DNA of 64,000 nucleotides from Candidatus Omnitrophota bacterium (GTDB lineage Bacteria; Omnitrophota; Gorgyraeia; Aquiviventales; Aquiviventaceae): NCBI GenBank assembly GCA_016180575.1, contig JACPAY010000003.1, positions 106,154-170,153 of the forward strand, written 5' to 3'. The stretch's first letter is position 1; the number at the start of each line of letters is the position of its first letter. The notes under the pieces are model-generated. The model was not told the DNA's origin, made no database searches, and saw only the letters and a program-made list of their open reading frames with translations. The translations under genes were made by a program, and so were the position numbers. This document shows positions 1 through 64,000 of the stretch, piece by piece.

Positions 1-75
1 GCCCAGCATCGCCAAGAGCCACTCCACACCTGTCCCCACCCCCACGACCGCCACCCGGTCCCCCGGATGAACCTG
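1..75 (-). other. ORF2 start of a further SAM-methyltransferase-like module (cut by the window edge)
   Basis: HPGDRVAVVGVGTGVEWLLAMLG resembles MTase motif I (xVLDxGxGxG). Confidence 0.3.
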
Positions 76-12762: not shown

Positions 12763-12805
12763 CCCGAGCCGGACCTGCGCCTCAGTGCGTTCGACGAGCC
12801 CGCTG

Positions 12806-15800
12806 TCAACGCACCTCCTCGTCGTAGAGGGCATGCCGGACGATCGAATCTCGGAAGACGTCAAGCGGCTCTCCCAGCCGCTCCGCCGACGCCCGGACAT
12901 CGCCCTCGGCGGCCCGCAGCGCCTCCACTCGCGCAGCGACCGCCCGCTGAACCTCCGCAAGTTCGGTGGCATAGTCGCGCACCTGCTGGAACCGCCACAG
13001 GCCGGGATGATCCGGATAGGGGGCAAACCGATAGACCCGCTTGACGCTGTCCGGCCGCCACTCGCTTGCCTGGGTCGTCCACACCACGTCTTCCCCAAGC
13101 CCAGGATCGAACCGCTTCACAACCCTCGCGACCCCTGGCTGGAACGCGCCAGTATGCAGCGAGGTTCTGAGGTCGCTCCTGCCGAGATGGAACCACAGCC
13201 TCCCATGACCTGTGGTGGGCACCTGGAAGTCGAGGTCGGGAAACAGCCCCGGCCGCCTGGCATCCGGGCTGGTCAGCTGGGCGCGCAGGGCGCGCATCCC
13301 CAATTCGCTCTCGGTCGGCTGGGGGGCCGCGGGCTCCTCGGCGGCCGGCGGCTCCTCTGCTGCCAACGCAAGAGGTTCGGGCGCGGCGGCGGGTTCCGGC
13401 GCCGCGGGCTCAGGCGCGCGGGCATCCGCCGGCGCGGGCGCCGTCGGGCCTGCCTCATTGAGCAGCTGCCGCAAATACGGTTCCCGCTGGATCGCTTCCT
13501 GCATCAGCCGATCGAACCAGAGGCTCTTCGCGGACCGCCCGTCTTCCTCCGTCATCAACAGCGCCAGGCCCTTGGCCAGCGCGACGCTGTTATAGAGCCC
13601 ATGGACGAAGACGTTGGCGGCCACGGCTCCCAACAGCCGGATGAGACCAGGCGGGAGGCTCGGGAGCTCGATGACATTTGCCAGCGCCTCATAGCCCGCC
13701 ACGCCGAACAACGCGCCCGCAACCGTGGCCGCGGCGATGAGGCCGAACCCGATCCAGCGCTGGCGTCGGGCCATTGCGACGCGCTCTCTGGCCTCCCGCG
13801 CGGCGTCCCAGAGCCGATCGACCGCCGCGTCCCGCAACGATCGGGGGGCGCCGGCCAGGTAGAGGGCGACGTGAAGCTGGACATCCCAGAGATCCAGTCG
13901 AGGATGCAGCAACAGGAAGACTTGCGCGAGCTTCTCCGCCTCCTCGACGCTGAGCCCCGGCAGGGTTTCCTGCAGGGTTCGAGCTAGATCGGTGAGAGGC
14001 TTCCCCAATGGATGCGCATTGAGGTAGCGCCCGCCGGTGAAGGTGGCCATGTGCCAGATGGTCCGCGGGAACTCGATGAGCGCCGCGAACCACACGGCGA
14101 TCAACTGGACCCAGGCAGACCACGCCGCCACCTCCGCCGGCAGCGGCCGGCCGGCCCGCGCGAAGAGCCAGCCTGCCAGGAGCCGGAATGCGGTCACGCT
14201 CCCCGGAAGCATGAGGATCGGTGGAGCGGATTCTGCGGCAGATGGACGGACGTCGATGCGCACGCGGGCGCTGACCCGCTCACCGGGAGCCAGGATGACC
14301 GGCGTGGACTCGCCGAGGCCGGCTGCATGGAGGTTCATCGCATCGGTCGCGGACGTCTGGGGCTCGACCGAAACAAACTCCTCGCCCTCCGGCACCCACA
14401 CGACCGTATGGGTGAAGAGCGGATCCTGCCGGATCTCGACGCGGCGCCCTTGCGGGTCCTCCAGCACCGAGACGATCTCCCCCTGTTCATCCGGCTGCAA
14501 CCGGGTGAAAACATGGTCTAGGCTGCGGCCCTCCAGGAGGGTTAGGGCGCGCAGGTCCCACGACGTGCCTTCGACCGGTACAGGCGCCTGCGGCAGCGGC
14601 ATCCGCTCGGCGTCCGCCTGCCAGACCGAGGCGCCGGGCACCGCGAGCCGCCAGCGTCCCCGGTCGGGCGTCCGAAACCAGGGATGGAACCCGAAGCTCG
14701 CGACGCGCCGCCGCCGCACATCGTCATTGACCACCTCCACCTCGATCGCGAGCCCGCTGCTCGTGACGCGATACGTGAGCGTCGGATGCAGCGGGCCGAA
14801 GAACCGCGCCATCTCCTGGGCGCTCTCCGGCGTCAGGGCCAGGCGAATGAAGCTCCCCTGCGCATCCTGTCCGGATTCGAGCACGGTCCAGCGGGCGCGC
14901 ATGGCCATCCCGTGCAGCGCATGCGGACCCAGCATCCGCACCAGCGGAGAACCCCTGACGTCCACATGCTCGCCGTCGAAGGTGAACTGCCCATTGCCGA
15001 GCCGGTTCGCCCAGGGCCCCAGGAACGGCAGGCCGCCGTCCTCGGCGAGGTCATCAGGCTGATGCAGCAGCTCCACCCCATCGACCACGAAGGAGGTCAC
15101 CTTCCCGCCGAGCTCCGGCGCCACTTCGATAAACGTCCGGCCGGTCGGATCGGCCGCGCGGATGACCGCGCGTCCCCCCAGCCACTGGCGCCAGGCGGCA
15201 CGGTCTTCAGCCGGCACGCCGAGGCTGTCCAACAGCTGCCCGCGCGCCGCCTCGGTCGGCAGCCGGAAGCTCACCGGAATGGGAACGCGCGGCTCTGCCA
15301 CCTCCAGCAGCCAGCCGAGATAGCTGCGCATCGACTCCAGCGCATTCTGGCGAGCCGCGTCCTCCAATGCGGAGAACTTGCGGAGACCCTTGAAGGTCTC
15401 GCTGTAGCCCTCCAGAGGCTGAAGGAGCCTGATGCGGACCTCCTCGATCGGTTGTCCGCGGAACTCCAGCGGCGTCTTCAGCGCAAGCTGGAGGAGCCGG
15501 TCCTCCGGGAATGCCACCTGGCGCACCTCGCTGGACCGCAGCGCCCGCACGTGAGCGGTCAAGAAGTCGCGCAGCGATGCCACCGCCGCCTCCCTGGTCT
15601 CATCCGGCACAAGGCCCCAGGCGCCAAGGCGCTCATCCTGTTCCGCGCTCTCCGAGGTCACGCTCAAGATGATCCGCTCTTCCGGCTGCCGCCGGCTGAA
15701 CGACTCACGCAGGGCGGACGGCAGGTCGTCCCCCGCCGCAATGACGAAGGCCTGAGGTTGGGGTGCGGCGGGCGGAGGCTGAGGCGCCGCGACCGGCTCA

Positions 15801-18800
15801 TGAACGGGACGCACGCGCTTGCGGTCCCACGCCGCAGCTTGAGCGGCCTGGCGTGCGCGCGCCACGCGCCGCCGCCAGGCGCGGAGGCCGACCGCCGCCA
15901 CGGCCAATCCGGCTCCACCCAGCAGCGTCCCCTGCCACTCATCCCACCACGTCGTATCTGACGAGGGCAGCGGCTGGCGGACCGGAGGCCCCGGCTGGCC
16001 TCGCGGGATTACCACCCCAGGCGCTGGCGGCTCCGGCGTCGCCCGTAACCCGCGAGGCGCCTGAGGGGCTGCGGGCGGCGCCTGGCGCTGCTCCCAACTC
16101 CGCAGGTCGGCGGCCAACTGCTCCCGGTGGCGTGTCAGCTCTGCGACGAACTCCGGCGAGCGCGCCAGGACCGCCTCGATCGCCTGGAGCTCGCGTTCCC
16201 TCCTCATGATCTCAATGGTGAATGCCGGCTGGGGATTCTGTGCAGCGGCGATTCGCAGCGCCTCCAATGTCGAGCGGTTGACCTCGCGCTGCTGCACGTG
16301 CCGGATGACGCGGTCCGTCAGGTCCAGGCTGCGGCGATACGCCAGCGGGGTTTCCTTCGCCAATTGCCCCATCTCATTTGCGCGGCTCCGAAGCTCCAAG
16401 AGCACCATGTGAAAGCCCCGGATCACATCCGCGGCCAGATGGGAGTCGCTGTCAAACGCTTCGGGATGGAGGATGAGGACCCGCTGGCGCGGATCGGACA
16501 CGCCAGGGACCAGCACCCCGACATGTCCCTGCCCGCCCTGAAGGGGGTTCGCCGTGCCCGGGAGCATGCCCTCGCGGGCTTGGTGCGCCAGCAGATCGCC
16601 CTTCTCTAACCGGAATGGCACGGGTCCGGAGAGCACTCTGGAGTCGGCAGGGTCGAGCAGCGGCTCAACCAATCGCCAGATCCGGTCAAACCGCCGCAGA
16701 TCGTTGTCGCTGAACCCAGGCCCCAGCGGCAGCTGAAGCTGCGCCTCGCTCCGACCGGCTCCCGCCAGCCCCGCCGCGACCGCTCCACCGACGAAACTCA
16801 GGAACTTCCGGCGCGTCCAGCGACCGGGGAGTGGCTGCGCGGCGGCGGAGCCCCGCCTGGCCACAACCAAGAGGAGTGCCAGGAGCACCCCATCAAGTGC
16901 CAGGCCGAGCCACGGGTGCCCCACCGCGATGCCGGCCGCGAAGAAGAGACCGAGGGCTTTTTTGCCCGGCAGGCGCGGCGGGGGTGAGGCATCGTCGGCG
17001 CTTGGTGGAAGCGTCCATTCCAGGTCCAAGCCGCGTCCCGATAATGAGATCACGGTCAACTGGTACACCCCAGGAACGTCCGTCTTGGAGACGGAGAGCT
17101 CGAAGCGTCCAACGACCGCGAGGGGCTCATTGAACCTGAATGGTTTGCCCGGATCGTCCGGCTGGATCGCCCGAGTTGTCGGATAGAGGCGGAACCAGGG
17201 CACGCCGCCCTGCATCCAGACCCGGTAGCGATGCTCGCCCATTGTCAGCAGCACGTCCTGCTTGCCGTCGAAGAGAATGGTCTGGACCGGCTCGAGGTCT
17301 TCCGTCCCGCCCACCCTGGCCACGCGCGAGCGGCCCATCCAGGCCAGCAGCGGGAAACCCCTGTTCCCTCGCTTATGCCGCTCCACGATTCCGTGGATCA
17401 GCGGGCGCTCGCGCTCCATCGCCTGGCGGGCGAGCGACAGCGGCACCTCCTCGAACGCCCCCTCCTTGCTGTGATGACGGATCACCGTCAGACCATTGAA
17501 CGCCTCCTCCTCGGTCAAGAGCCGCTCGGCGAGCAAGGCCGCCTCGGCGGAGGGCGAGTTCCGCGCCGGATGCGCGGCATGCCACAGCTCCTGGGCAGCG
17601 AGGTACTGCCGATAGTCAGCGTAGGGATGGCCGTCGCGCACGAACACCGGTGCGCCACCGGGATTCGCATCGCCTTGGAGGTGGAAGTGTTCGTGTTCGA
17701 GCACCCCCTCCGTGAGGTTGGCAGTGTGGTCCGGATGGTCCACCACGAACCGCAGGAGATGGCGCGGAAGGAAGATGGTCGGCTGGCCTTCCCCGCGGCT
17801 GCGCTGCTGGCTGCCGGCATGCGCGAGCAGCTCTCCGCGCTGAAACGCCTGATGCGGCCCTATCCCAATCACGTACCGGTACTGCCAGAGGCCGTGGCGG
17901 TTCGAGTAGCGGATGGCGTCTCTTAAGAGCGTCAATTCCTGGTGGAGCGCCGCCCCCGTCAGCTTCAGGAGGTCGGCAAGGTCCCGCTGCGCATTCGGGC
18001 CCAGCTCCAAGCGGCCCTGGAAACCCTCCAGCAGCCTGGCAGCTTGCTCCTCATCGGTTATGGGGTTGAAGTAGTAGTCGAGGTCGTGCGCGGAAAAGTC
18101 AATGGCGACCGCCTCGCCCACCTCAATCTCCTGGCTCCAGATCTCATTGACTTGTTCATGCGGCAGATCGGCCAGGCTCTTTTCGCTGCCGGCGGAGCGC
18201 AGCATCTCCTCGACCTCATGGTCTATCACCGTCGTCTGCAGCACCCGCAGGGCTTCCCATGCCGCCCGCTGGACGGCCGGATCCCGATCCTCCATGGCCT
18301 CCTCCAGGAGCGGCAGCACCTCAGGATGCCGCCGTCCCAAGAGGCCGGCCACCGCCTCCAGACGGACATCCGCATCTTTATCCATCAGCGCCCAGCGCAG
18401 CCGTGCGATCACGCGTGAATCGCGCATCGTCCCCAACAACTGCACCGCGGTCTTCCGCACGCTCGCGTCAGGATCTGTCCGGATGGCCCGTCCCAGCTCG
18501 TTGATCGCGTCCTCCGCCGCCTCTTCGCCGCCCAGCTTCACAAGCGCGCGCGCCGCCTCACGCCGGACGGCAGGATCAGCGGCGTGGTTCCTCAGGGCGC
18601 GCGCATAGCTTTGCTGAAGCCAGCCAATCACCAATGGCTGCAGCCGGTTGCCTGAGTGGAACCTGGCAGCGGCCTCCAGGCGGCTCGACGGATCCCGGAA
18701 CCAGTCCAGCTGGTGGAAGAGCTCCGGCAGATCGGTCATCTTGTAGCTGGTCGGCGCCCGGTCCGCCGCAGCCCGGAGCGCGTCGCGGATGGCGCTGGGG

Positions 18801-21800
18801 GGCAGGCCGGCGATGCCGGCGAACAGCGCGACCACCGCGTCCTCCATGCCCGGGACCGCGCCGTTGGCGTGCCGCACGCGCCCCGTCCCTCCGGTGGTGA
18901 AAAATGGTGAAGATTCGAACCGGCCCAGACCAGCAATCACTCGTCGCTCATCGATCTTCCTGCGCGTCTGTGGGTCGACCGGCACCGTCGGGTCCACCCA
19001 GACGACGAGATTGCCTTGTTCGTCATAGAACGCGCTCCCCTCTTTGTGGTCGAGGAACCTGCGCATGCGGGGGAATCGAAACTCCGCCCCCCGGTACAGC
19101 TCGTCGAACTGCTCTTGCGCATGCAACAGCGCTCCTGGATCTCGCCGCTGCTCAAGCTCCTCATACGACAGGAGGGGACGACCTCCGGCGAACACAGAAG
19201 CTTTCTGTTGCCTCAGCCGGCCCACCCCCCCGGGGAGGACCGAGGTCTCCGGGACGGGGTAGCCGGCCTTCCGCAACCGCTGGTTGTCCTCAACGATCCG
19301 GTCGCGCAGCGCATCGCGTTCGGCGTCGCTGACCGCCATCACGCCCCCTAACAGCGGGCGGACCTCTTTCACCACGTCGTCGCCGGCATCGTACACGGTC
19401 ACAAACCACCCCTCGGCCATGGGAACCGCCGCGATCGCTGAGACAGGCGAGGCCGCCATATCCTCCGGGCCGCCAAGCGGCGTTGATGGCGGTGCCCCTT
19501 GGGCGCGCCTGAACCACCGGGGCAGCCACGCCATCGCGATGACGAGCAGCGCGTCGACCGCCAGCCCGAGCCCGACCGGCCACCAGGCGTCGAGGCCCGC
19601 CGCGTAGAACCCGCCGATGAGCGTGCCGACCGGGGCCAAGACGCGGAGGCCCGCCACGAGCGCCAGCTGCTGGATGAGGCCGCCCAGCCAAGTCCACAGG
19701 TTTCCGAGTGCAGGGCGAGGCGACTGGTTGACATCCGCCAGCTTGACCTTTCCGATGAGAAAGCGCTCCACGAACGCTCCCTCAGCGGAGGCGCGCCGCC
19801 TGGCGAGCTGCTCCGCCATCTCGGCGTATTCTTTGCGCGCCTGCTGGCTCTCATACCGGCGGATGGCTGCCGCCTTCTGCCTCATCTGGGGCTCATCGAA
19901 GAGGTAGTGGAGGTTCGGGGCCAGGTACTGGTCTTCAAACCCTCGGACGCCTTCGTAGAACACGACCGTGGCGTTCGGCGCATAGCGGGCGATGGCTTGG
20001 AGAAAGAGCGTCGTGAACAGCCGATGCTGGGGGTGGAGGTCGAAGGGAGCGTACAGGAAGAACGCCAGAGCGTGGCCGCCGTGAGCTTGCGCCAGGCGCC
20101 GCACGTAGCCGTCGATGCGCTGGCGATCAGCCGCGCTCAGGCTCGTCCACTGGCTGAAATGGAGGTCCAGCCCGCCATCGGAAAACCGCACCAGGCGCTC
20201 CAGGCTCTGGATCAAGCCGAGGTTCTTGTAGTTATCGTCGGGGACGCCCAGCTCATTGGCCCCGTCGTCATTCTCTTTGCGGCGCTGCATCCGCTTCTGT
20301 TCCTCGGTGGGAGACGGGGTCCCGTATTTCTCCCGAAGGAACTGGTCGGTGACGCCGGCTTCATCCCAGAACCCGGTCACCATCAACGCGCCCTCGAATG
20401 CCGGAGGGATGGCGCTCCGCCGGCGCAACCATGACAACGTCCACGAGCCTGGTTGCCGCTCCGATGGCGCCTGTTCATCCGGCTCGACCGGATGTCCCGC
20501 CGCTGTCAGGATGCGGGCCGCCGCCCCGAACCCGATGGCCACGTCATCCCCATGCGGCTCGGTGAACACGAGCTGCTTGCCCCTGAAGAAACGCTCGAGT
20601 TCCTCGGGCGTCTGGATGACCGAAACCCCAGGGTCTGCGCGGAATTCAACGCCATTCACGAGCAGTCGATTCGCAAGGGAGAGCTGTCCTTGCATCCCGC
20701 GGCCCTGGCGGTCTCCGAGGCGCTCGAGCGCCTGGTCGTCCGCCGTCAGCGGCCCCCCAACCTCGCGGGCGCGCTTCCCATAGCCGTAGATGAGCTTGTG
20801 CTCGTTCACCTCATGGCGCACCGGCTCGCCCATCGCCGGATCGCGTCCGGAGATGGCCACCACTACTTGGCCCGCATCGGTGAACCGCCTCGAGTAGGTC
20901 CAGCCGTTCACGCTGAGCGTTGCCGATGTTCGGGTGTCGGAAGCGATGGGTAAGCGCCATGCCAGCCACGCGTGAAACAGCTCATGGTGCAGCCACTTCG
21001 GGCTGTAGAGGAGGACTTCATGCAGATACAGCCGCTCAGCCGTCGCATAGCCGAGGAGGAGCGCCCGGCCATTCGTCCCGCGGGGCGGAGCACCGCGGAG
21101 GATTCGGATGGCAGCTACATTGAAGTTCTTGGCGAACGTGCCAACTTCTTGCAGCAGCGGACGATAGGGGGCCGGGACGGCTTCACCCCTGCCCCCCTCG
21201 TCGAACGCCCAGCGCAGCGACTGGAGATGCTGGGTGAGCTGCCGGAGCTCATGGGCATCCGGCTCAGCCGCCACCAAATCGACGGGGATCTGCTTTCCCG
21301 TGGACACCCCAGCTTCGTCCAGCGGTTCCAGGCGACCGATCAGATGCCCGCGGCTCTCCCGCATCTCCCGAACGTGGACGCGTCCGACGGTTCCCCCATC
21401 CGAAGGTAGCGCTACCTTTTCCTCGTCAGAAACATCGCCGGGCGAGGAGGACTCGCCACCCCCCGGCAGCGCGGCCTGCCGTCCCACGACCTCTGTGTCG
21501 CGCAGCCTCCCCTCGACAGCATCGCCGGCGGGTGGGGGAGGCTCCGGGGAGGCCGGTGGCTGCACGTCACCGTGCTCCTCCAGCACGCGCTTGGTCTCTG
21601 CAGTGCGCTCGACGGCGTCCCGATAGAGGTCGAGGATGCCCTCCTCCTGGCCGCCCGGAATGTCCTCGGCAAAGCTGGGGACCAGGCGGCCGGTGAAGGC
21701 TGCGCGGATGTCGTAGACGAGCGCCGTGTAATAGATCCAGCGCCTGACGGCGCGCGGCCATGCCGGATCCTGCCGCCGATACCGGCCCGCCTCCTCCTTC

Positions 21801-51800: not shown

Positions 51801-54800
51801 GCCAGCGCGCTGGTCTGCGGGGCGCGGGCCCAGCGGTCGAGCACCGACGCCAGCGTCCCCGGCTCGCGGGCCGCCTGCTCCAGCTCCTGCACGAGCCGCG
51901 GGCGCTGCGGCGGACTCAGGTCCTGCCGCTCGGCGATGAGCCGCCGCGCCGCCCCCAGGTCCAGGGCGCCGCGGATGAACTCCTCTTCGAAGCGGACCGG
52001 CCGGCCGGCGATCGCCTGCAAGGCCGTGTCCCGGGCCTTGGCTCCGGCGGTCACGGCCCGCTCGAGCACCTGCCCCGTTGCCGAATCGAACCGGAGCCGC
52101 ACGACCCCGCCCTCCCGCACGAGCGCCGTCCAGGCCTGGAGGCGCTCGCGCAGCCGCCGCGCCGCATCGGCCGCTTCCGGCGAGCGGCCGGGCAGCTCCA
52201 GCATCCGCTCGAGCGCGCGCAGGGCATCAAGGAGCGCCGCCTCGCGTCCGGCGGATTCCCGGGCGGTCAGGCGGAACGCGTCGCGCTGGGCCGCCCGCAG
52301 CTCCTGGCGCGGGAGGCTGGTCGCCGTTTCGAGTTCCACCTCGGCCCACGTCCGCTCAGCCGCCGTCAGCGCGACCCGGGCGTCGCGGGCCTCCTGGGCG
52401 CTCGCCGCCGCGTCTGCCGCGAGCCGCAGCCACGGCTCGCCCAGCACGCCCGCTTCGGGAACGGCGCGCAGGTCCTCGAATGCCATCGCCCAAATCGGCT
52501 GTTGGGCCGGCGCGGCGTCCGCGCGGAACGCCTCGCGCAACCGACGTTCCTCCGCCGCCACCTCGGCCTCCCGGGCCCGGAATCCCGCGTCCAGCACCTC
52601 GCGTCGGGCCGCCGCCGGCGCCTCGCGCAGCGCGCGCTCGACCGCCGCCCGGGCCTCGGCCTCGGGGCGGCTCATCTGCGCCAGCTCCAGCTCAAGCGAT
52701 TCCAGCTCGCTCCCCCGCCGCTCGGCCTCGACGGCGTCGCCGCGGTTCTCCGCCGACGGCAAGAGATCGCGTTTGGCCGCCTGCCGCGCCCGCCGGACGG
52801 CCTCCCGCTGAGCCTGGAGATCCATCAGGCGCCCGAGCCGCTCCCGCAGCTCGGCGAGCGCCGGCCGCTCCTCAACCGAAGCGGCCTGCAGGCGCTGGTC
52901 GACCGCGAGCCATGTCTGAGCCGCCAGCAACTCAGGACCTATCTGAGGTGGCGTGGACTCGACTGCGGCGCGCAGCGGCTGCGCCTGCTGGTCGAACGCC
53001 TGCACCAGCCGGTCGCCGAGGAGCCGCTCGGCGAGGCGCGCGGCTTCCGGCGCCAAGCCGGCCAGCCAAGCGCCCAGCCGCTGATGGAACCGGCCCAGGC
53101 GCTCCTGCACCGCCAGGGCGGCGATGGCGCGGCTGCGCTCGACGGCCGGGACCGCCTCCTCGTCCAGGATCGCCCGCGCATCCATGGCGGCCAGAATCTC
53201 GCCCTGTTCCTGCTCCAGCGCCGCCAGCTCCGCGCCGTCGGCGCCCGGGATGGCGCGCAGCTCCTCGAACGGAAACGGCAGAGCCGGCGACTCCACGCTC
53301 GTCCCTCTGCCCTGCTCCTCGCGCCGCTGCCTGGCCCCGGATTCGGCGGCCCACCGCCTCGCCTGCTCGGCGGCCTCGCGCGCCTCATCCACGCGGGCGG
53401 CCAGCTCCTGCCGCTCGGCCTCCGTGGAGCCGCCGCGCGCCTTGGCCTGGTCCAGCCGCCAGCTCCAGAGCCAGACGCGCCCTCTCGCGCGGCCCAGCCG
53501 GTCCTCGGCGCTCGACGGTTCGGGACGCCGGAACCACGCCGCTTCGATCTCGGGCCGCACGCGGTCGATGAAGGCGGCCGGCGGTTCCGAGGCGCCGCTC
53601 GGCCGGCCCGCCGCCACGGGGGCTCTCGACTCAAACCAGCTCTCCGCCACCCGATCCGCCGCCTGGGCGTTCGCCTGGAGCTGGCCGCCGGCCAGCACCT
53701 GGCGGAGATACTCCTTCAGCTCCGCCACCCCGTCCTGGTAGATGCTCAGGAACCGCACCTGGCTGTTCAGCAGCTCCGTCAGATGCCGCAGGGTCTGGTC
53801 GAGGCCGTGGTCGGCGATCCCGGCCTCGAATCGCAGCGCCGCCCGGTCAACCGCGTGCCGCTGCTCGGCGATGCGGGGCGCGAGCGCCGCGAGCTCGCGG
53901 GCGGCGTCGTTGATGCGTCGGCCCACCTGCGTGAGGTGGTGGCGGGTCTGCTCCTGGTAGCGGGCGAGATCGCTCTCCGCGATCTGCAGCTGCTGCCGAG
54001 ACGCCGCGCGATACTCGCTTTGGGCCGCCGAGGAGACGGGAATCAGGACGTGCCCGCCGCCCAGCACCCGCCGGACCAGCTCCCCGTTGTCAACCAGATG
54101 GGTGGCGGCCAGACCCGCCTCGACCTGGAGCTGCTGGAAGGGCGCCGCGGCTCTCGTCGCGTCAGCCGACGCCTCGCGGAGGAGGCTGTGCCGGTGCTGA
54201 TAGCCGGAGAGCAGGGTCATGCCCTGGAGGAGCGCATCGGAGAGGCCCGCGGGGACGTCTTTCGGGGCCTCAAGCGCCCAGCCCGCCACGAGCCGGTCGA
54301 CGCTGAACGACCCGGAGGATGCCTGCGGCGACTCCGCCAGCACGGACGCCAGGAGGATGCGCAGCTGCTCCTCGGCGGCGCGGCGCTCGAGGTCCGCCAA
54401 CGCGGCCGCCTCCTCCGCGTTGGCGAGCGCCTCCTGGCGCGGGCGCTCATCCGACGCCCCCCGGCGCAGGACCGCCTCCTGGGTCTGATAGCTCGCCATG
54501 GCGTCCCGCGCCAGCCGCAGGCGCTCCTCGGCCCGCTGCAGCGTGTGCCGGGCCACGTAATACCGGGCCACCGCGGAGGACAGCTCCGCGCTCGCGATGG
54601 AGCGCTCCTGCTCGACCGCCGCCCGCGCGGTCTCCTCGCGCGCCAGGGCCACGGCGACATCCGACCCGCGGGTGGCATCGACCCACCAGCCGGCCCTGAG
54701 CGACACGCCGCGATCCAGGACGGCAAAGGGCCCCTCGGGGCTCTCGATGTTCGCCGACCGATGGCTGCCGACGGTCACGCCCTCCCCGCCGAAGGCCGCC

Positions 54801-57800
54801 CCTCGCTTGCGCTGCTCGGCCTGCCGCGCGGCCGTCGCGCCCGCCAGGCGCCGCCGCGCCTCCTCGACACGCGGGTGCCGATCCGCCGCCCGGCGGAGCA
54901 GGTCGACGGTCAGCTCCACCGGGGCGGCCTCCGCGGCCGGCTGAGCCGCCACCGCCTCGGCCCGCTCCGCTTCTCCCAACTCGATGCCGTACTTGATGGC
55001 GCGGACCCGCGCGGCGGCATAGGCCGCGCTGGCCTGGTGCCCCTGCGCCCTCGCCTCATCCAGTTCAGCCCTGGCGCGCGCCAGATCCTGCAGCGGCGCC
55101 GTGCCCAGATCAACCGCCCGCTGCTGCCGCTCCACCATCCGCTGGCGGAGCTCCGTCAGGCGCTCGCTCGTCCGCATCCGCGCCACGGCGGCCCGCAGCT
55201 GGTGGAGCGCCCCGGCGCGCTCCTGCTGCACCTGCATCTGCAGCGTCTCCAGGCGCTGCTGGGCCGCCTGCCAGTTTCCCTGCTGCTGCTCGATGGCGGC
55301 CTGGTCCCGGCTGCGCCATCGGAGGAACTGCCGGAAGACGTCGATGGAGATGGTGGCGAATCCCACCAGCGGGTTGGCCGCGGAGAGCCCCAGCCGAATC
55401 CGGGGATCGTTGTCGCCGCCCTGCCGGAGGAACGCGAGCAGCTCCTGCTGGACGGTGACGTCGCGCTCCAGCAGGGTCTGCAGGCGCGCGATCTCGAGGC
55501 TCTCGGCCCAGTCGCGCCGGCGCCCGGACGCGTCGGTGACGGCGATGTCCGCCTCGATCGCTTCGCGGGTCCACGTGCCGGGCAGCACGACCTCGTAGGC
55601 CGGATCGTGGCCCATCAGGAGGTTGTAGCGGACTTGGACGCTGGCGCGGTCATCCGTCGCCTGCCGATGATCCTGCTCGGCCTGGGCCAGCGCGCGCTGG
55701 GCGACAAGCCACGGCTCCTCGTCCAGGCGGCCTTCCCGGTACAGCCGCTCGGCCCCGTTAGCGGATTCCTTGGCCACGGCCAGGGCTTCGGCGCGGAGCG
55801 TCAGCTGCTCCTCCGCCGTCTGGAGCTCGTTGTACGCATAGATGGCCTGCTCGGTCACCACGCCGTCCACGACCTGCTCGTTGGCCCGGGCGTACTCGTG
55901 CAGCGCGCGGAAGTACCGGTTCGTGGCCTTGCCGAACCCGAGCCACTCGGAGGGAATGCGCAGCACGACGCCTCTCTGGTAGCCCGACTCGAAGAGGCTG
56001 GCCCCGAAGCGCGTGCCGGCGTTAAGGCGCTCCCGCTCGGCCTGTGCGCTCGCCGCGGCGCGCTCCGGCGCCCCGCGGCGGAAGCGCGCGACCGCCTCAT
56101 CCAAGGTGGTCGGTGGGGCCGCAGGCGGCGACCCGGCGGGCGTCGTGGAGGGTGCCGCGCGACCCCAGCGAACCGTGTCCAGCAGCGCCCCGAGATATCG
56201 GCCCACGCGCTCCGACTGCACCGAGAGGCGCGAGTCCTCGAACTCCTGGTAGAGCGCCACGAGCGCTTCAAACCGCCCGGCTCCATCGCCCTCTCGATAG
56301 CCGGCCCGGACGCGCGCCAGCAGCTGCTCCTCGAGGGCCTGCTGCCGCGGAAGGTCGGTCTGTAGATACTGCCTCCCCCGCTCGACGTCGTGCGACGCAA
56401 TCGCGCGCCGGATGTCCTGGTTGCGCACTGCCTGCTCGAAGAGGGCGCGCTGCCGCTTGGCATCGGCGCCCGCCGCCCGCGCTTGGCGCCAGGCGTCGAG
56501 GTCCGCCAGGGAGAGCCGCGCGGTGAACCCGAAGATGCGTCCCCCGGACAGCGCATAGCCGCCGGTGACCTCTCCTTGCGGGGAGAGCACTTCGGCCTTT
56601 AGCCAGTTCCGGATGGCCTCCGCCTCGTTGAGCTCGGTCCTGGCCAGGAGCGCATCCACACTCAGGCCATCCGGCCCGCCCGACTCGGCGATGAGGGCCC
56701 GCAGCGCCGACTCAAGCTCCTCGACGCTGGTGACCCCGACGCGCAGCTGCCGCTGCTCCGACGGATTCTCAAGGTCCAGGAGCCAGCCGAGCGCCGCCTG
56801 CGCTTCGGGCAAGTCGTAGCCTTGGAGGATGTCGCGCCGATGCGCCAGCGAGCGGCGCACGTCCGCCAGCTGCTCCAGCGCGTGCGGCGTGGCCCGGCCG
56901 CTCGCTGCCTTGTCCCGCGCGATGGCCTCGTCCTCGCCCAGCGAGCCGAGCAGCCGGTCTGTCTCCTGGAGCTGCAGCTCGATCTGCGCCAGCCGGCTGT
57001 AGGCGGCCAGGGTGCTCTCCACGCGGCCGGTGAGCGCCCAGACCAGCCGCTGGTCCGCCGTCGCCTGCTGGGCGGACTTGGCCTTGTAGGCGAAGACCTC
57101 ATCCGGGGTGAAGACGTGCGGGCTGAAGCCTCCGCTCACCACGATCCGGCCGCCCGCCACGTTGCGGATGGATTGCGCGCCGCCCGTGACCTTGAATTCA
57201 CGCAGCAGCCCGCGCCAACCGGCCAGTCCCTTCAGGACCTCGGCCCGCTCGCGTAGCGCGAGCGCCTGGTAGACCGCCTCGCCCGCCTCCGGCCTCATGG
57301 ACCGCGTCAGGCTCTGGCGCATCACCGAGCCGAGCGACAGGCGCCCCTGGGCGTCGCGGAGCTCGCCGGCCCCCGCGCTCACCCGCTCAATGAACGCCGT
57401 CGCGCGCTCGCGGGCGGCCCGTCCTGCGCCCGTCATCCCCTTCGGCCCCGCCTCATCCTGGAGGAGCCGCTCGATGGGAATCGTCACCGTCACGGTCGGC
57501 TGGTGGAAGGCCTGCCCCTCCCGCTGCCGGACGTATCGGTCGGCCACCTCGACGTTCAGGCCCCGCAGGCCGAGGAACCGCTCGATGCCGAGCCCCGCGT
57601 CCACGATGTCGGTCGTGCTGAAATCCGAATGGGCCTCGACCCGTGCCGTCACGCGCCCGTCGGCGAGGCTGACGTCGAACCGCACGTCCCCCGCTTGGCT
57701 CTTGGGACCCTTGGCAAAGCCGGCCTTGCTGTCGACCCGGACCGCCCCGAACGTCATCCGTTTGCCGAGCGCCGCCCCGACGGCAGTCTGGGGGGGCGCC

Positions 57801-60800: not shown

Positions 60801-63800
60801 TCCCGAGGCCCGACCCGTTCCAGCTCCCGGCGCATCGCTTCCGTGAACGTGCTGACCGATGACCGGAGCTCGGGCCGCTCCAGCGAGAGACGCGGTGCGT
60901 CAGCCGTCCCGGCCTCTCGCGGGAGGATGGGCGCCACGCCGGCGAGCTCGGCGCGGAGCGCGGCCCCCATCGCCTGCCAGTGCCGCCGGGAGAGCGCGAG
61001 TTCCTCGTCGGTTTCGGCCCGGAAGAGCTCCGCGAGCTGCCGGCGCGCATCCCGGTCGGCGAAGAGCTCCTCGGCCTCGGCGAGCGGTCCCAGCGCGATC
61101 AACAGCACGGCGGGCAGCTCCTCCGCAAGTTCCGGTGACACGCGCAATCCCAGCGCCTCGTTCCCCTGGAGGACCGAGCCCCGGACGGCCCGGACGATCG
61201 AGAGCCCGGCCACCACCTCCTGCTCCCCTTGAGGGCTCCGCAGCGTCACGCGATGGTCCGTCTCTTTCGGATCCCACGCGACGTCGACTACGGTCCAGCC
61301 GCGCCGCGCGGCGGTCGCCGGAACCTCCTCGTAGAACGCCTGCAGGCCCGTGAGCTGATGGACGGCCGCGTTCAGCCGCGCTCGCGCGCGCTCCAGCCCG
61401 GCCTCGGCATCGATGCGCATCCTGGAGAGCTCGTCCTTCGCATCCTCCGTCAGCCGGGCATCCCGCTTGCCGAGCGCGGCGGCGCGGACGGCGGCTTGGG
61501 CGCGCGTCACCTCGGCCTGCCGCTGGGCGACCGCCCCCTGGGTCGCCTCGAACACCGCGCGGAGCGCCGAGCCGGCCGGAGGCGGCGTCAGGCCGAGGCG
61601 CTGGAGCGACGCCAGCTCAACGACCCGGCGGCGCTCGGCATCGTCCAGGAACTGCCGCGCCGCGCGCCAGCGGGCGTGGGCGTCGGCGAGCGACATCCCC
61701 AGGAACGCCTCCTGTTCGCGCTCCCAAGATTCCCGGAGCGGCCGCTGGCGATCCATGAACGCAAGGATGGCGTTGATGGCGTCGGCCTTCTGCCGCTCCG
61801 CCGCGGACGCGGCGGCTGGCTGGTTGGATTGGGCGGGCTGCCGCTCCGTCTGCGCCGGCACCCGCTCGGCGACCGGTGCCAGGTCGCGCGTCTCGATTCC
61901 GACCGGCGGCTTCGGTGACGGAACCGCGAACGCCCGCCGAGCCCGGGCGCCGAACCGCGCCGCATCCTCAGGCCGTGCCGCCCGTACCCGGTCCGGGTGA
62001 TCCTGCGGCACGCTCCGGTTGAAATACGTCGGCTGGCTGCCGAGCGCCCCGATGAACAGTCCCTCCTGCTTGCCGTCAGCATGGGTGATGGTGAAGAGCT
62101 GCCCCGCCGGCCGGCCCCGATAGAAGAGCGGCGTGGGTGCGACCTCCCTCACCGGCTGCTCCGCAGCAGGCGCAAGGTCGCGGCTCTGGATCGCGGACTC
62201 AACCGGCCGCGCGACTGGAGGCTGCGCCGGAGCTGCTGGACGATCCTCCTGCGGCCCCATCCCGCGAGGTGGCGCAGGGGCAGCCGGCGCCGGCTGTGTC
62301 TGTCGTGGCCCCGCCTGTGCCCGGGGGGCCCCCTCGGCGGACGGCGCTGGCGGCGGCGCGGCGGTCGCATCGGTGACGCCGGCAGGCGCCGCCGGCATCC
62401 CCGGCATGGGAACAGCTCGGTTATCGGTCACCACCGCGTCCAGCTGAATCCATGGGCGGCCGGGTACAGGCGGCGGCTCGGCAAGGCGCACCTCGGTGAT
62501 CTCGGTCGTGACGGCCGGCACCGGCTCGCGGGCCGGCCCGCGTCGATCGTCCTGGTCGGGGCCAGCGCCCGCGATTGGCGGAGCGACGAGCGGCGTCACC
62601 CTGCCCGCATACGTCGCCACCCCCTCCGGCCCGGGCCCTGGACCCGGCCCGGGGCCGCCGCCCGCACCGTCCGCGGCCGGCTGCCCCACGCCAGCTGCCG
62701 TCGCTGCCCTCTGCGCCCCAAGGTCTCTCTCGAGCCGTCCAGGCTCCGGGAGTTCTCCCAGAGGTCCGCTCGAGCGCTCCCATCTCGCCAGCGTCGCCAC
62801 AGCTTCCTCATCCCCCAGCGCCGCCCTCGTTTCGAGCAGCGCCCGCTCCGCCTGCCCCCTCGCCTCAGGCGCCGCATGGGGGTCGGTCAGCGTCCGCTCC
62901 CAGGAAGCGTGCTGCATGAATTGGGCGGTGGAGAGCGCGGCCAGCGACCCCGGCGCAAGCCACTGGAAGATGGCATCGGACGGGTTGATCCCGAAGGGCG
63001 CCAGCACCGCCCCGAGGATGTTCGAGAAGGCCATCACGCCCTGCTCGGTGCTCTCGATGCTCAGCGCGGGCGCCCCCACCCACCCAAGCGCGAGCGCCGC
63101 CTTGCTGATCACGAGGATCTCCAGCCCGAGGAGCGCCATGCCGGAGGCGGCGTGCGCGAAGTCATGGCGGAGCTCCCGGCGGTCCTCCCCGGATGCGCGC
63201 AGGTAGCGCAGCAGCATCTTTGGCTGGAAGAGGAACTGCAGGACGGTCACGGTCGCAAAGGCGGTCAGCCAGTTGCCCGGGGTGAAGGCCTGCACCACTT
63301 CGTGCTCGCGGGTCAGCACCTCCACCGGGCTCATGGACAGGATCGCGCTCACGACGCGCACCGCGTCCTCCCCTGAGAAGAACAGGCTCGTGACCCACAC
63401 CAGCGGAACCAGCACAAACAGCGCCTGAGCGATCCCGCCGGCAAGGAAGAGCCGGCCGCGCGTCCAGAAAATCTCGCCCATGGCCTTGACGGGCGCCGTC
63501 AGCAGCTGCCCGGCGGTGGCCTCCGGCGTGAGATGCTTCGTGTACTGCCCGATCGCGAAGTTGTGCATGATCCGGTACAGCCCGTGGGCCAGGCTGAACG
63601 GCGCGAGAGCCAGGAGCCGCCCCGCCGAGGCCTCGGGGTGCCGCGCCGGCAGGTTAACGGCCATCTCGTAAAGCTCATCGAGGAAGCCGAACCACCGCAT
63701 GACCACCAGGAGCAGGAGCGTCCCCACGGCCATGCCCACCGTCGCCGCGCTCACGCCCGCCGCGGCCACCGCCCAGCCAAGGAGCAGCGTCCCTGCAGCG

Positions 63801-63946: not shown

Positions 63947-64000
63947 GTCGTGCGGACGCAGCGGCTGGACCCCTGGCGCCAGGGGGACGCTGCGGATGGC

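Follow-up and report, generated by a model that had tools for sequence, protein, structure and literature searches.

An uninterrupted 51-kb open reading frame from an Omnitrophota bacterium and the membrane-anchored multi-enzyme giant protein that it may encode

Results

A stop-free minus-strand frame dominates the window

The 64,000-nucleotide stretch of Candidatus Omnitrophota DNA analysed here (the window) contains two ORFs only, the larger of which reads without a single stop from position 64,000 to 12,809 of the minus strand (51,192 nt; 17,064 codons) and is still open at the window's end, as had been claimed. We interpret it, with a probability of roughly 0.55, as a genuine single gene for a membrane-anchored, non-repetitive multi-enzyme giant of the Omnitrophota type, at least 17,064 aa long, with a cytoplasmic alpha-glucan chain and an extracytoplasmic N-terminal half. 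Profile and motif matches show residues ~8,600–16,600 to be a chain of predicted alpha-glucan and sugar-nucleotide enzyme modules with intact catalytic signatures.

At the base composition of the window about 0.02 stops per codon are expected, or ~330 by arithmetic in a frame of this length, and the longest other open stretch, the neighbouring 13-kb ORF excepted, is 4,968 nt on the antisense strand. GC at the three codon positions is 0.74/0.49/0.87, and GC3 stays at 0.80–0.92 in each 1,000-codon block with no frame switch; together with the absence of stops, this indicates that the frame is coding along its whole length. The first Met is the ATG at 63946–63944, and counting from it gives the 17,046 aa originally put forward as a minimum. 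Because the 18 codons 5' of this ATG are GC3-rich as well and a search upstream of it found no Shine-Dalgarno sequence, the true start probably lies beyond the window.

GC along the ORF drifts from 0.71–0.76 (44–64 kb) to 0.65–0.70 (16–44 kb), and that of the window is 0.69, compared with 0.49–0.58 in three Omnitrophota-annotated contigs (L003, L008, L009). No sequence features pointing to chimerism or internal genes were found in the ORF, no Rfam family or tRNA matched in the window, and a search of public contig collections found no independent copy of the window DNA. The protein is mostly non-repetitive, as proposed: its repeats are a ~260-aa module present three times and a ~130-aa module present twice (identity ~42%), low-complexity sequence makes up 9%, and at the DNA level no repeat exceeds 69 nt and a single trivial tandem repeat occurs.

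The second ORF also has a 6-phosphogluconolactonase/GlcN6P-isomerase-like module. No terminator or promoter consensus was found at the junction of the two ORFs, and the second is probably co-transcribed with the giant gene.

Table 1. Positions of the ORFs, modules and hydrophobic segments in the window
Feature	Positions	Strand	Residues and remarks
Second large ORF	1..12834	minus, co-directional	at least 4,250 codons, exits left end; HTH_17/MerR-like repeats, PlsC acyltransferase, TPR, TM segments
ORF junction	12750..12850	minus	GAGGAGG, then giant-ORF TGA; first ATGs of next frame ~12834 and ~12761
Giant ORF	12806..64000	minus	17,064 codons + TGA stop at 12806-12808; 5' end cut by window
Two C-terminal hydrophobic segments	13691..14131	minus	16624-16642 and 16749-16770
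Aldose 1-epimerase	14255..15121	minus	full-length match, 113 bits; motifs present
HEAT repeats	18236..18574	minus	HEAT_2, 91 bits
TM hairpin	19520..19666	minus	14779-14827, then RWFRR
Alpha-glucan phosphorylase-like, TIGR02094	21938..23659	minus	~13448-14021; PLP-lysine motif EASGTSGMK
Class-I methyltransferase-like, weak candidate	25064..25522	minus	sub-cutoff scores
Second nucleotidyltransferase N-motif + hexapeptide repeats, weak candidate	26885..28147	minus	E 0.02-0.1, sub-cutoff
DUF4922 (HIT-like)	29201..29482	minus	CRLC + HLHLHLW motifs
GlgA-like GT5+GT1 glycosyltransferase	30404..32197	minus	10602-11199; E-x7-E motif EPGGIANQE + TRIVKQKG
Beta-sandwich copy 2	32135..32533	minus	10490-10622; immediately N-terminal to GT5
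Internal repeat module copy 3	32531..33208	minus	10265-10490; CxxC at 10306/10309
Pfam-free module 'b'	33185..34078	minus	~9975-10272; 2H phosphoesterase fold, two H-x-[ST]-x motifs
Beta-sandwich copy 1	34016..34405	minus	9866-9995; weakly like CBM20/48 + Ig-like folds, E 0.01-0.03
Pfam-free module 'a', alpha/beta part	34406..35038	minus	~9655-9865; common to Omnitrophota P0015 + 949-aa P0002
Internal repeat module copy 2	35348..36130	minus	9291-9551
Sugar-1-phosphate nucleotidyltransferase-like	37601..38008	minus	Fucose_pyrophosphorylase/NTP_transferase, weak GlgC-like; GGYGTRF motif
Internal repeat module copy 1	38330..39112	minus	8297-8557; CxxC at 8369/8372
TM cluster 3	40442..42148	minus	7285-7853, 7-9 segments; no homologue detected
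TM cluster 2	43694..44074	minus	6643-6769, 3 segments
Single hydrophobic segment	45608..45670	minus	6111-6131, then WRRRRRTR, stop-transfer-like
Four tandem TolC-like OEP repeats	53705..55990	minus	~2671-2797, 2897-3000, 3058-3217, 3332-3432
N-terminal TM cluster	63062..63808	minus	65-313, 3-4 segments; last: Arg-rich upstream, none downstream

A chain of putative alpha-glucan enzymes occupies the second half

Pfam, NCBIfam and PDB searches of the giant ORF gave seven robust families (TolC-like OEP in four copies, sugar-1-phosphate nucleotidyltransferase, GlgA-like GT5/GT1, HIT-like DUF4922, alpha-glucan phosphorylase, HEAT and aldose 1-epimerase), four weak ones and about five Pfam-free modules, so that the more than 25 family-level modules of the original prediction were not recovered. 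Its description of the protein as enzyme-rich applies to residues ~8,600–16,600 and fails for the rest; of the first ~8,600 residues, all but the OEP repeats are orphan.

The chain comprises, in order, a sugar-1-phosphate nucleotidyltransferase, a beta-sandwich followed by the GT5 glucan synthase, a HIT-like module, a PLP-dependent alpha-glucan phosphorylase and an aldose 1-epimerase. Interspersed with these are HEAT repeats, the 2H phosphoesterase and three copies of an adaptor-like module. The catalytic motifs are intact (GGYGTRF; EPGGIANQE and KQKG; HLHLHLW; EASGTSGMK; FHPWF/VEPQ). Three modules match the families of GlgC, GlgA and GlgP and keep key motifs (G-G-x-G-T-R; E-x7-E with R..K.KG; EASGTSGMK), but the Glg enzymes are separate soluble proteins, whereas the modules here form part of a single membrane-anchored chain; neither GlgB nor GlgX was detected. 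The GT5 module is 45–49% identical to Omnitrophota-type relatives compared with 25–29% to canonical GlgA, and has GGGGQG in place of the canonical KxGGL. Both the GT5 and the GT35 module score under the NCBIfam cutoffs, and their substrates may therefore differ from those of the glycogen enzymes. A structure model of module 'b' (pLDDT 85) matches LigT, Usb1, AKAP18 and CPDase in Foldseek with probability 1.0 and TM scores up to 0.74, and on this modelled fold the module is shown to be a 2H phosphoesterase.

Membrane segments, cysteines and the N-terminal half

Transmembrane segments were called with a hydropathy scale, their clustering was tested against shuffles, and topology was read from positive-inside counts in what is an Arg-rich protein. 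There are 12 close neighbour pairs versus ~1 in shuffles, and four clusters are clearly non-random, while the five isolated segments are individually within chance; with a more permissive threshold, chance could account for about half of the segments. The 'at least eight' clusters proposed earlier thus come down to four robust ones. Arg-rich flanks follow the segments at 6111–6131 and 14805–14827. On this topology, the stretch of 6,900 aa that separates TM cluster 3 from the hairpin at 14779 would be cytoplasmic, with access to NTP, NDP-sugar and phosphate.

The N-terminal block at residues 314–6110 is Cys-free and would lie outside the inner membrane. Within these 5,800 residues, which lack TM segments and are predicted to be extracytoplasmic, sit the four OEP repeats (PF02321; 79 bits versus a cutoff of 22). 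Their summed score places them far above threshold for the TolC/outer-membrane factor family, but the canonical protomer has two repeats in ~450–500 aa and a signal peptide, whereas here four follow one another ~2,700 residues into the chain; no PDB TolC structure matched the region by sequence, and a beta-barrel is not confirmed.

Extreme avoidance of cysteine is typical of exported bacterial proteins. The giant protein has nine cysteines in 17,064 residues, eight of them within CxxC pairs, a frequency of 0.05% versus ~1.2% expected. Residues 1–8368 have none, all four CxxC pairs fall in the predicted cytoplasmic block, and the enzyme block has one non-CxxC cysteine in ~8,700 residues.

Relatives among large proteins of Omnitrophota, Elusimicrobiota and Endomicrobiales

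Homologues are very rare: a 1,200-aa segment of the ORF had only 42 matches among 1.84 billion representatives. Those with a name are large proteins from Omnitrophota, Elusimicrobiota and Endomicrobiales, and they tie the ORF to the published class of giant multi-enzyme proteins. In one Omnitrophota relative (P0015; 7,679 aa, partial) GT5 comes after module 'a', as it does here, and the ORF fills an entire 23-kb contig; two others of ~4,690 aa (P0044, P0045) combine module 'b' with ROK and GDPGP1_N. Identities to the Omnitrophota proteins are 49% for GT5, ~30% for module 'a' and ~38% for module 'b', and no similarity to any relative was detected outside the shared modules. Modules 'a'+GT5 and 'b' also occur in proteins of ordinary size (P0002, 949 aa; P0003, 939 aa; P0004, 1,194 aa), and in two relative contigs (L001, L002) the homologous region is divided among separate genes, all in one direction, that encode at least 4,399, 422, 1,838 and at least 1,149 aa.

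Discussion

That the published prokaryotic giants are mostly repetitive adhesins, as the original prediction held, is outdated: TM-anchored, non-repetitive 'multi-enzyme metabolic' giants are known in Omnitrophota (West-Roberts et al. 2023, bioRxiv 10.1101/2023.11.21.568195; Nielsen & Lui 2026, bioRxiv 10.64898/2026.06.07.730766). In their 18 samples Nielsen & Lui (2026) counted 3,650 proteins that reach or exceed 10,000 aa, and they catalogue the domain architecture of 916 Omnitrophota giants. The commonest domains of the published giants include starch-synthase PF08323, GT1 and HEAT, ~2% of residues are in TM segments, and the enzyme domains are predicted to be extracellular. The giant ORF resembles the 'Archaeovorin-type' (West-Roberts et al. 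2023) and 'multi-enzyme metabolic cluster' (Nielsen & Lui 2026) proteins in being a single non-repetitive ORF that exceeds 10,000 aa, in which Pfam matches are sparse islands and most of the sequence is unannotated, in its TM content (~2.5% of residues), in its GT5, GT1, HEAT, HIT-like and sugar-metabolism modules and in TPR, here in the neighbouring ORF. It differs in its higher GC than the three Omnitrophota-annotated contigs, which counts against the preferred reading, in its four TolC-like repeats and near-complete alpha-glucan enzyme set, and in lacking, in the in-window part of the gene, SecA_DEAD, C39/S8 peptidase, NUDIX, glycoside hydrolase and dockerin domains. Size is all that it shares with repetitive adhesins (the 36,805-aa protein of Chlorobium chlorochromatii, RTX/Bap-type) and NRPS/PKS megasynthases; searches found neither tandem Ig, cadherin or RTX repeats nor condensation, adenylation, KS, AT or carrier-protein domains.

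One interpretation, which we consider unlikely, is that the ORF is genuine and works as smaller units produced by post-translational cleavage or internal initiation, and so amounts to an operon whose genes are joined in frame. The separate genes of L001 and L002, which also count against the single-chain reading, and the ordinary-sized proteins sharing its modules favour it, and cleavage by C39/S8 peptidase domains was raised as a possibility by West-Roberts et al. (2023). However, profile searches detected no peptidase, intein or self-cleaving domain in the window, ATG/GTG codons preceded by a Shine-Dalgarno core are not enriched in frame (3.9% versus 3.1% out of frame), the part scanned has no promoter or terminator consensus, and the retention of 17,064 codons without one stop implies selection on read-through translation. 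It is more doubtful still that the protein, by analogy with a proposal made for the Omnitrophota Archaeovorins, is mostly extracellular and serves as a surface 'coat' or in predation, binding to and remodelling polysaccharides of host or prey envelopes. Module-level homology to the Omnitrophota giants, the TolC-like repeats, the scarcity of cysteine and the published extracellular predictions are in its favour, the last of these, with the Cys avoidance of the enzyme block, also counting against our cytoplasmic placement; yet the conserved enzymes depend on NTP, NDP-sugar, PLP and phosphate, none of them available outside the cell, the CxxC pairs are confined to the predicted cytoplasmic block, and domain searches of the window found no glycoside hydrolase, lytic transglycosylase, peptidase, dockerin, lectin or adhesin repeat.

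An artefact, whether a chimeric in-frame join or errors erasing stops between neighbouring genes, is very improbable. The GC drift and the want of an independent copy would fit it, but errors disrupt long ORFs much more often than they make them, no repeat is long enough (>69 nt) to seed a misjoin, GC3 remains high in one frame over 51 kb, and the ORFs of relatives such as P0015 also span entire contigs. High-GC DNA does yield long spurious ORFs, as the antisense stretches here illustrate, but a chance open frame is refuted by the stop-free 17,064 codons, the strong codon-position GC asymmetry and matches to several enzyme families with intact catalytic motifs.

The giant ORF is thus a very divergent example of the recently described Omnitrophota giant multi-enzyme proteins and is not unprecedented. 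On the single-gene reading that we prefer, its cytoplasmic block would act as an assembly line tethered to the membrane, producing and recycling an alpha-1,4-glucan.

The giant reading frame

On the minus strand, 17,064 codons (51,192 nt, from 64000 to 12809) run without a stop to a TGA at 12806–12808, and the frame is still open at the window edge at 64000, such that the giant ORF is 5'-truncated. The original prediction of a single 51-kb ORF open at 64000 is borne out by this absence of stops and by GC usage of a coding type, with GC at the three codon positions of 0.74/0.49/0.87 and GC3 between 0.80 and 0.92 in each 1,000-codon block. Its figure of at least 17,046 aa is correct as a count from the first methionine (ATG 63946), although the open frame is 18 codons longer. 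These 18 codons are likewise GC3-rich and no Shine-Dalgarno sequence was found before the ATG, so the true start of the gene most likely lies to the right of the window.

Base composition predicts a chance stop rate of about 0.02 per codon, or about 330 over the giant ORF, and the longest open stretch in the window besides the giant ORF and the second ORF downstream of it is 4,968 nt. The giant frame is coding, and a GC-rich accident is ruled out; a chance ORF is therefore excluded as an explanation. An assembly artefact is unlikely, as GC3 is uniform across the ORF and the largest repeat in the window DNA is no longer than 69 nt, with one tandem repeat, which is trivial. No Rfam families, tRNAs, ribozymes or riboswitches were found inside the ORF.

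Composition drifts along the window, with GC of 0.71–0.76 at 44–64 kb, 0.65–0.70 at 16–44 kb and 0.62–0.64 at 8–12 kb, and GC3 drops from about 0.91 in the N-terminal part of the giant ORF to about 0.81 in the C-terminal part. Within the coding sequence this drift may reflect modules gained at different times. Three stop-free stretches of 3.9–5.0 kb lie opposite the giant gene on the plus strand (51395–56362, 44027–48259 and 36935–40831); these are not genes but the shadow frames that a GC3-rich gene is expected to cast on the other strand, and a gene caller could mis-annotate them.

Module content

The protein had been described as mostly non-repetitive, and this is confirmed by self-BLAST, which detects only two repeats, a module of about 260 aa present three times and one of about 130 aa present twice; low-complexity sequence makes up 9% of the ORF. 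More than 25 family-level modules had also been proposed, but searches of Pfam, NCBIfam and PDB sequences support seven families robustly and four weakly. The gene itself is genuine and very long, and was correctly spotted but over-described. Across the first ~8,600 residues these searches find nothing but the OEP repeats, with no match in PDB sequence searches for residues 1–9,500 or in NCBIfam for residues 1–8,800. Tandem adhesin repeats and A, C, KS, AT and carrier domains were sought in the giant ORF and none was found.

Features of the giant ORF (residues numbered from the window edge at 64000)
Feature	Residues	Remarks
Supported TM clusters (four)	65–313, 6643–6769, 7285–7853, 14779–14827	hydropathy scan and shuffling
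TolC-like OEP repeats	~2671–3432	four in tandem; robust
Repeat module of ~260 aa (three copies)	8297–8557, 9291–9551, 10265–10490	~42% identity
CxxC pairs (four)	8369/72, 10306/09, 11508/11, 12656/59	
Sugar-1-P nucleotidyltransferase-like module	~8665–8800	robust
Module a	~9655–9991	Pfam-free
Beta-sandwich	9866–9995	two-copy module
Module b	~9975–10272	Pfam-free
GlgA-like GT5+GT1	10602–11199	robust
DUF4922 (HIT-like)	~11507–11600	robust
Alpha-glucan phosphorylase	~13448–14021	robust
HEAT repeats	~15143–15255	robust; HEAT_2, 91 bits
Aldose 1-epimerase	16294–16582	robust
Second nucleotidyltransferase with hexapeptide repeats		weak, below cutoffs
Methyltransferase-like stretch		weak, below cutoffs
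Cupin		weak, below cutoffs
PIG-L		weak, below cutoffs

Catalytic signatures and divergence of the enzymes

Catalytic signatures were defined from general knowledge of each family. The nucleotidyltransferase module carries the signature GGYGTRF, the HIT-like module has HLHLHLW with CRLC ahead of it, and the epimerase module has FHPWF and VEPQ. Alpha-glucan phosphorylases bind PLP through a lysine in the motif E-A-S-G-T-x-x-M-K, and residues 13991–13999 of the phosphorylase module read EASGTSGMK. Signatures of GlgA are a catalytic E-x7-E, a nucleotide-sugar-binding R/K motif and an N-terminal KxGGL. The GT5 module has EPGGIANQE (E-x7-E) at residue 11090 together with TRIVKQKG, both invariant in comparison with P0001, a related protein, and at the KxGGL position both proteins have GPGGGGQGM. 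That the family signatures are intact indicates, at the level of sequence, purifying selection on catalysis.

Both GT5 (PF08323, 81 bits) and GT1 (PF00534, 29 bits) score above the Pfam gathering thresholds. The GT5 region reaches 156 bits against NCBIfam TIGR02095, short of the cutoff of 328, and equivalogs fall far under their cutoffs. Identity to canonical GlgA is 25–29% in a plasmid collection that yielded canonical GlgA only, and by these comparisons the GT5 module is divergent. The phosphorylase module scores 57.6 and 88.2 bits against TIGR02094 (cutoff 191.7), the match being split across two query chunks, and it matches a PDB alpha-glucan phosphorylase at E 5e-15.

Two modules beyond Pfam

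An exhaustive HMMER search with residues 9291–10490 against 1.84 billion representatives gave 42 proteins only, and these matches delimit modules a and b, the former consisting of an alpha/beta part and the beta-sandwich. AlphaFold, given the alignment of the matches, produced a confident model (pLDDT 85). In Foldseek, module b is paired with LigT, Usb1, AKAP18 and CPDase at probability 1.0 (entries 1vdx, 5ldm, 6pfq and 2vfk), with TM-scores of up to 0.74. The 2H phosphoesterases carry two H-x-[ST]-x motifs on a LigT/CPDase fold, and the alignment consensus of module b has two such motifs, in YH... and ...TLxR. By its modelled fold and its motifs, module b belongs to the 2H phosphoesterase superfamily. 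A profile of modules a and b had no match among PDB sequences; the structure-based search alone succeeded.

Module b, for which no Pfam model exists, is also found fused to a radical-SAM domain in a protein of ordinary size (939 aa) in a housekeeping gene neighbourhood (contig L006, 10001–12820, JGI 3300009373), and so makes up a free-standing domain family not yet described. The beta-sandwich of module a is the two-copy module of the giant ORF, and its second copy directly precedes GT5. It bears a weak likeness to CBM20/48 and Ig-like domains (E 0.01–0.03), and a role in binding glucan is suggested for the modelled fold.

Membrane segments and topology

Transmembrane (TM) segments were called by a Kyte-Doolittle hydropathy scan and shuffling. 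The scan gives 11 segments at a threshold of 2.0, where shuffles give 2.9 ± 1.6, and 12 close neighbour pairs at 1.7, where about 1 is expected; by hydropathy only, TM segments account for about 2.5% of the residues. Where at least eight TM clusters had been claimed, the scan and shuffles support four, and five isolated hydrophobic segments are individually within chance.

The last supported cluster is a hairpin followed by RWFRR. We infer that the TM-poor block 7854–14778 (6,900 aa) preceding it is cytoplasmic, because the substrates of its enzymes (NTP, NDP-sugar, PLP and phosphate) are cytoplasmic, because RWFRR follows the hairpin, and because all of the CxxC pairs lie within the block. 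Residues 314–6110 lie between a TM segment that has Arg on its upstream side only and another that is followed by WRRRRRTR. These Arg flanks, the lack of Cys and the four TolC-like repeats would place this stretch outside the inner membrane. The repeats match OEP (PF02321) with 79 bits against a Pfam threshold of 22. Members of the TolC/OMF family are trimeric and combine a beta-barrel with an alpha-helical tunnel; a single-sequence AlphaFold model of the TolC-like region is all-helical at low confidence (pLDDT 51), and no PDB sequence match to it was found.

Avoidance of cysteine

Cysteine makes up 9 of the 17,064 residues (0.053%), versus about 1.2% expected from positional base composition. 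Residues 1–8368 contain none, and eight of the nine occur in the CxxC pairs. Tryptophan, which has the T-G of the first two codon positions in common with cysteine, is not depleted. Large relatives are likewise Cys-depleted, and on an Omnitrophota contig (L008, 10001–24079) a 4,692-aa protein has 0.06% Cys versus 1.07% pooled over 20 neighbour genes. The extreme depletion is specific to the large protein rather than its neighbours. There is no mention of cysteine depletion in either West-Roberts et al. 2023 or Nielsen & Lui 2026, and it could act as a simple signature of such giants.

Relatives of the giant protein

The GT5 region has one match among 5.8 billion proteins, the 1,838-aa P0001 (45% identity). 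Its locus (contigs L001, 1–19147, and L002; JGI 3300056673 and 3300063180) has a GC of 0.52 and carries co-directional genes of at least 4,399, 422, 1,838 and at least 1,149 aa separated by gaps of 19–184 nt, the first of which has no Cys in its visible 2,887 aa. The module-a region and the GT5 region are here on separate genes, which suggests, from gene order, that such loci may undergo fusion and fission between lineages. The 422-aa gene was considered as a counterpart of module b and rejected on comparison with it.

The same modules recur in other large proteins. P0015 (MFA5088109.1, annotated as 'Candidatus Omnitrophota, glycogen/starch synthase, partial') is a 7,679-aa ORF occupying the whole of a 23-kb contig, in which module a (~30%) precedes GT5 (49% identity), as it does in the window; this step from module a to GT5 is the only collinearity of the giant ORF with its relatives. 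P0044 (MCA9393669.1) and P0045, both from Ca. Omnitrophota and about 4,690 aa, combine module b with ROK and GDPGP1_N, and further matches are to Elusimicrobiota and Endomicrobiales proteins of 2,769 and 3,040 aa. Modules of the giant ORF are carried by ordinary-sized proteins as well. The relatives show the window's pattern of sparse Pfam islands amid unannotated sequence, and outside the common modules none aligns to the giant ORF. The N-terminal 1,200 aa and the TM region 6600–7900 have no match among 5.8 billion proteins in a search that needs shared 5-residue words, which distant relatives may escape. The window itself had no match in GTDB representative genomes, by protein pattern or by an exact 46-mer, or in JGI metagenome contigs, by an exact 46-mer or by alignment.

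P0006, of at least 4,961 aa (contig L004, 472–15357, Logan ERR3697024), has only the 2H phosphoesterase module in common with the window, at 37% identity. An inositol-monophosphatase domain and several TM segments are also present, Cys stands at 0.08%, and the contig has a GC of 70.5%; the source of P0006 may be a lineage of similar GC richness in which such proteins are made too.

Place among known giant proteins

The Omnitrophota 'Archaeovorins' have many TM regions, and HEAT is the commonest of their domains, next GT5 glycogen-synthase-like domains and then GT1, TPR, methyltransferases and sugar-phosphate enzymes (West-Roberts et al. 2023, bioRxiv 10.1101/2023.11.21.568195). A later survey reports 3,650 proteins with a length of 10,000 aa or more in 18 samples, catalogues 916 Omnitrophota giants by domain architecture and defines a 'multi-enzyme metabolic cluster' class, with PF08323 in 153 proteins, TM segments or a signal peptide in 94%, about 2% of residues in TM segments, and 80% sequence singletons (Nielsen & Lui 2026, bioRxiv 10.64898/2026.06.07.730766).

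The window ORF resembles these giants in its length of at least 10,000 aa, in its many enzyme families and lack of a dominant repeat, in its multiple predicted TM helices (~2.5% of residues versus ~2%), and in having GT5 (PF08323), GT1 and HEAT among its domains; sequence homology is at the module level only (GT5, modules a and b). Searches of the 17,064 residues at E ≤ 0.5 detected none of the SecA_DEAD, N-terminal C39/S8 peptidase, NUDIX and glycoside-hydrolase domains that are frequent in Archaeovorins, the N terminus of the gene being off the window. Giants of this type are expected in Omnitrophota genomes beside T2SS/T4P and GH genes; the window contains the two large ORFs only. By predicted architecture and direct module homology, the giant ORF fits the 'multi-enzyme metabolic cluster' class; it is very divergent, but of a recently described kind and not a new one. 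The Omnitrophota-annotated contigs of relatives that were fetched have a GC of 0.49–0.58 as against 0.69 for the window, which hints that the class reaches beyond, or varies more within, known lineages.

The second ORF

The rest of the window is a second, co-directional frame, open over 1–13116 on the minus strand. Its start is probably an ATG at ~12834 or ~12761, which gives it at least 4,250 codons, and it continues past the left edge of the window. GAGGAGG lies just ahead of the giant ORF stop and no terminator or promoter consensus was found at the junction; the arrangement looks like that of a single transcription unit. The second ORF abuts the stop of the giant ORF, and a 1-nt indel there would give a fused protein of more than 21,300 aa. 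It encodes tandem HTH_17/MerR-like repeats, a 6-phosphogluconolactonase/GlcN6P-isomerase-like domain, TPR, a PlsC-type acyltransferase and TM segments. DNA-binding repeats of the HTH_17/MerR-like kind are unusual for a TM-bearing giant protein.

Possible roles of the giant protein

In the likeliest reading, the enzymes form a membrane-tethered cytoplasmic line of nucleotidyltransferase, beta-sandwich with GT5, HIT-like module and phosphorylase, in which sugar-1-P would be converted to NDP-sugar, then to alpha-1,4-glucan, and back to sugar-1-P, with the HIT-like module and the epimerase as side branches. In a more far-reaching reading, to which we give a probability of only about one in eight, a single polypeptide would cross the whole diderm envelope, with alpha-glucan synthesis and recycling (nucleotidyltransferase, beta-sandwich with GT5, and phosphorylase) in the cytoplasm, a multi-TM cluster in the inner membrane, and a 5,800-aa Cys-free periplasmic arm whose four TolC-like repeats would dock to the outer membrane or be inserted in it. 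Were this so, the protein would be a self-contained machine that makes glucan and delivers either the glucan or its own distal part to the cell surface, and such giants would in general be designed to avoid cysteine almost totally.

It is plausible that the product is instead processed, or initiated internally, into smaller products, as the homologous region is split into separate genes in relatives; however, no peptidase or intein was detected and in-frame starts preceded by a Shine-Dalgarno sequence are not enriched. The literature, which leans to an extracellular reading, and the avoidance of cysteine speak for a role as an extracellular predation 'coat'; the absence of hydrolase and adhesin domains and the substrate needs of the enzymes speak against it.

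Omnitrophota are now known to encode many giant non-repetitive proteins, yet we know of none with a demonstrated function. The enzyme half of this one is unusually readable, and its coherent alpha-glucan and sugar-nucleotide set with intact motifs offers testable biochemistry. The layout of TM segments, Arg flanks and CxxC pairs leads to a topology hypothesis, with the enzymes inside and the TolC-like arm outside, that bears on whether such giants act inside or outside the cell.
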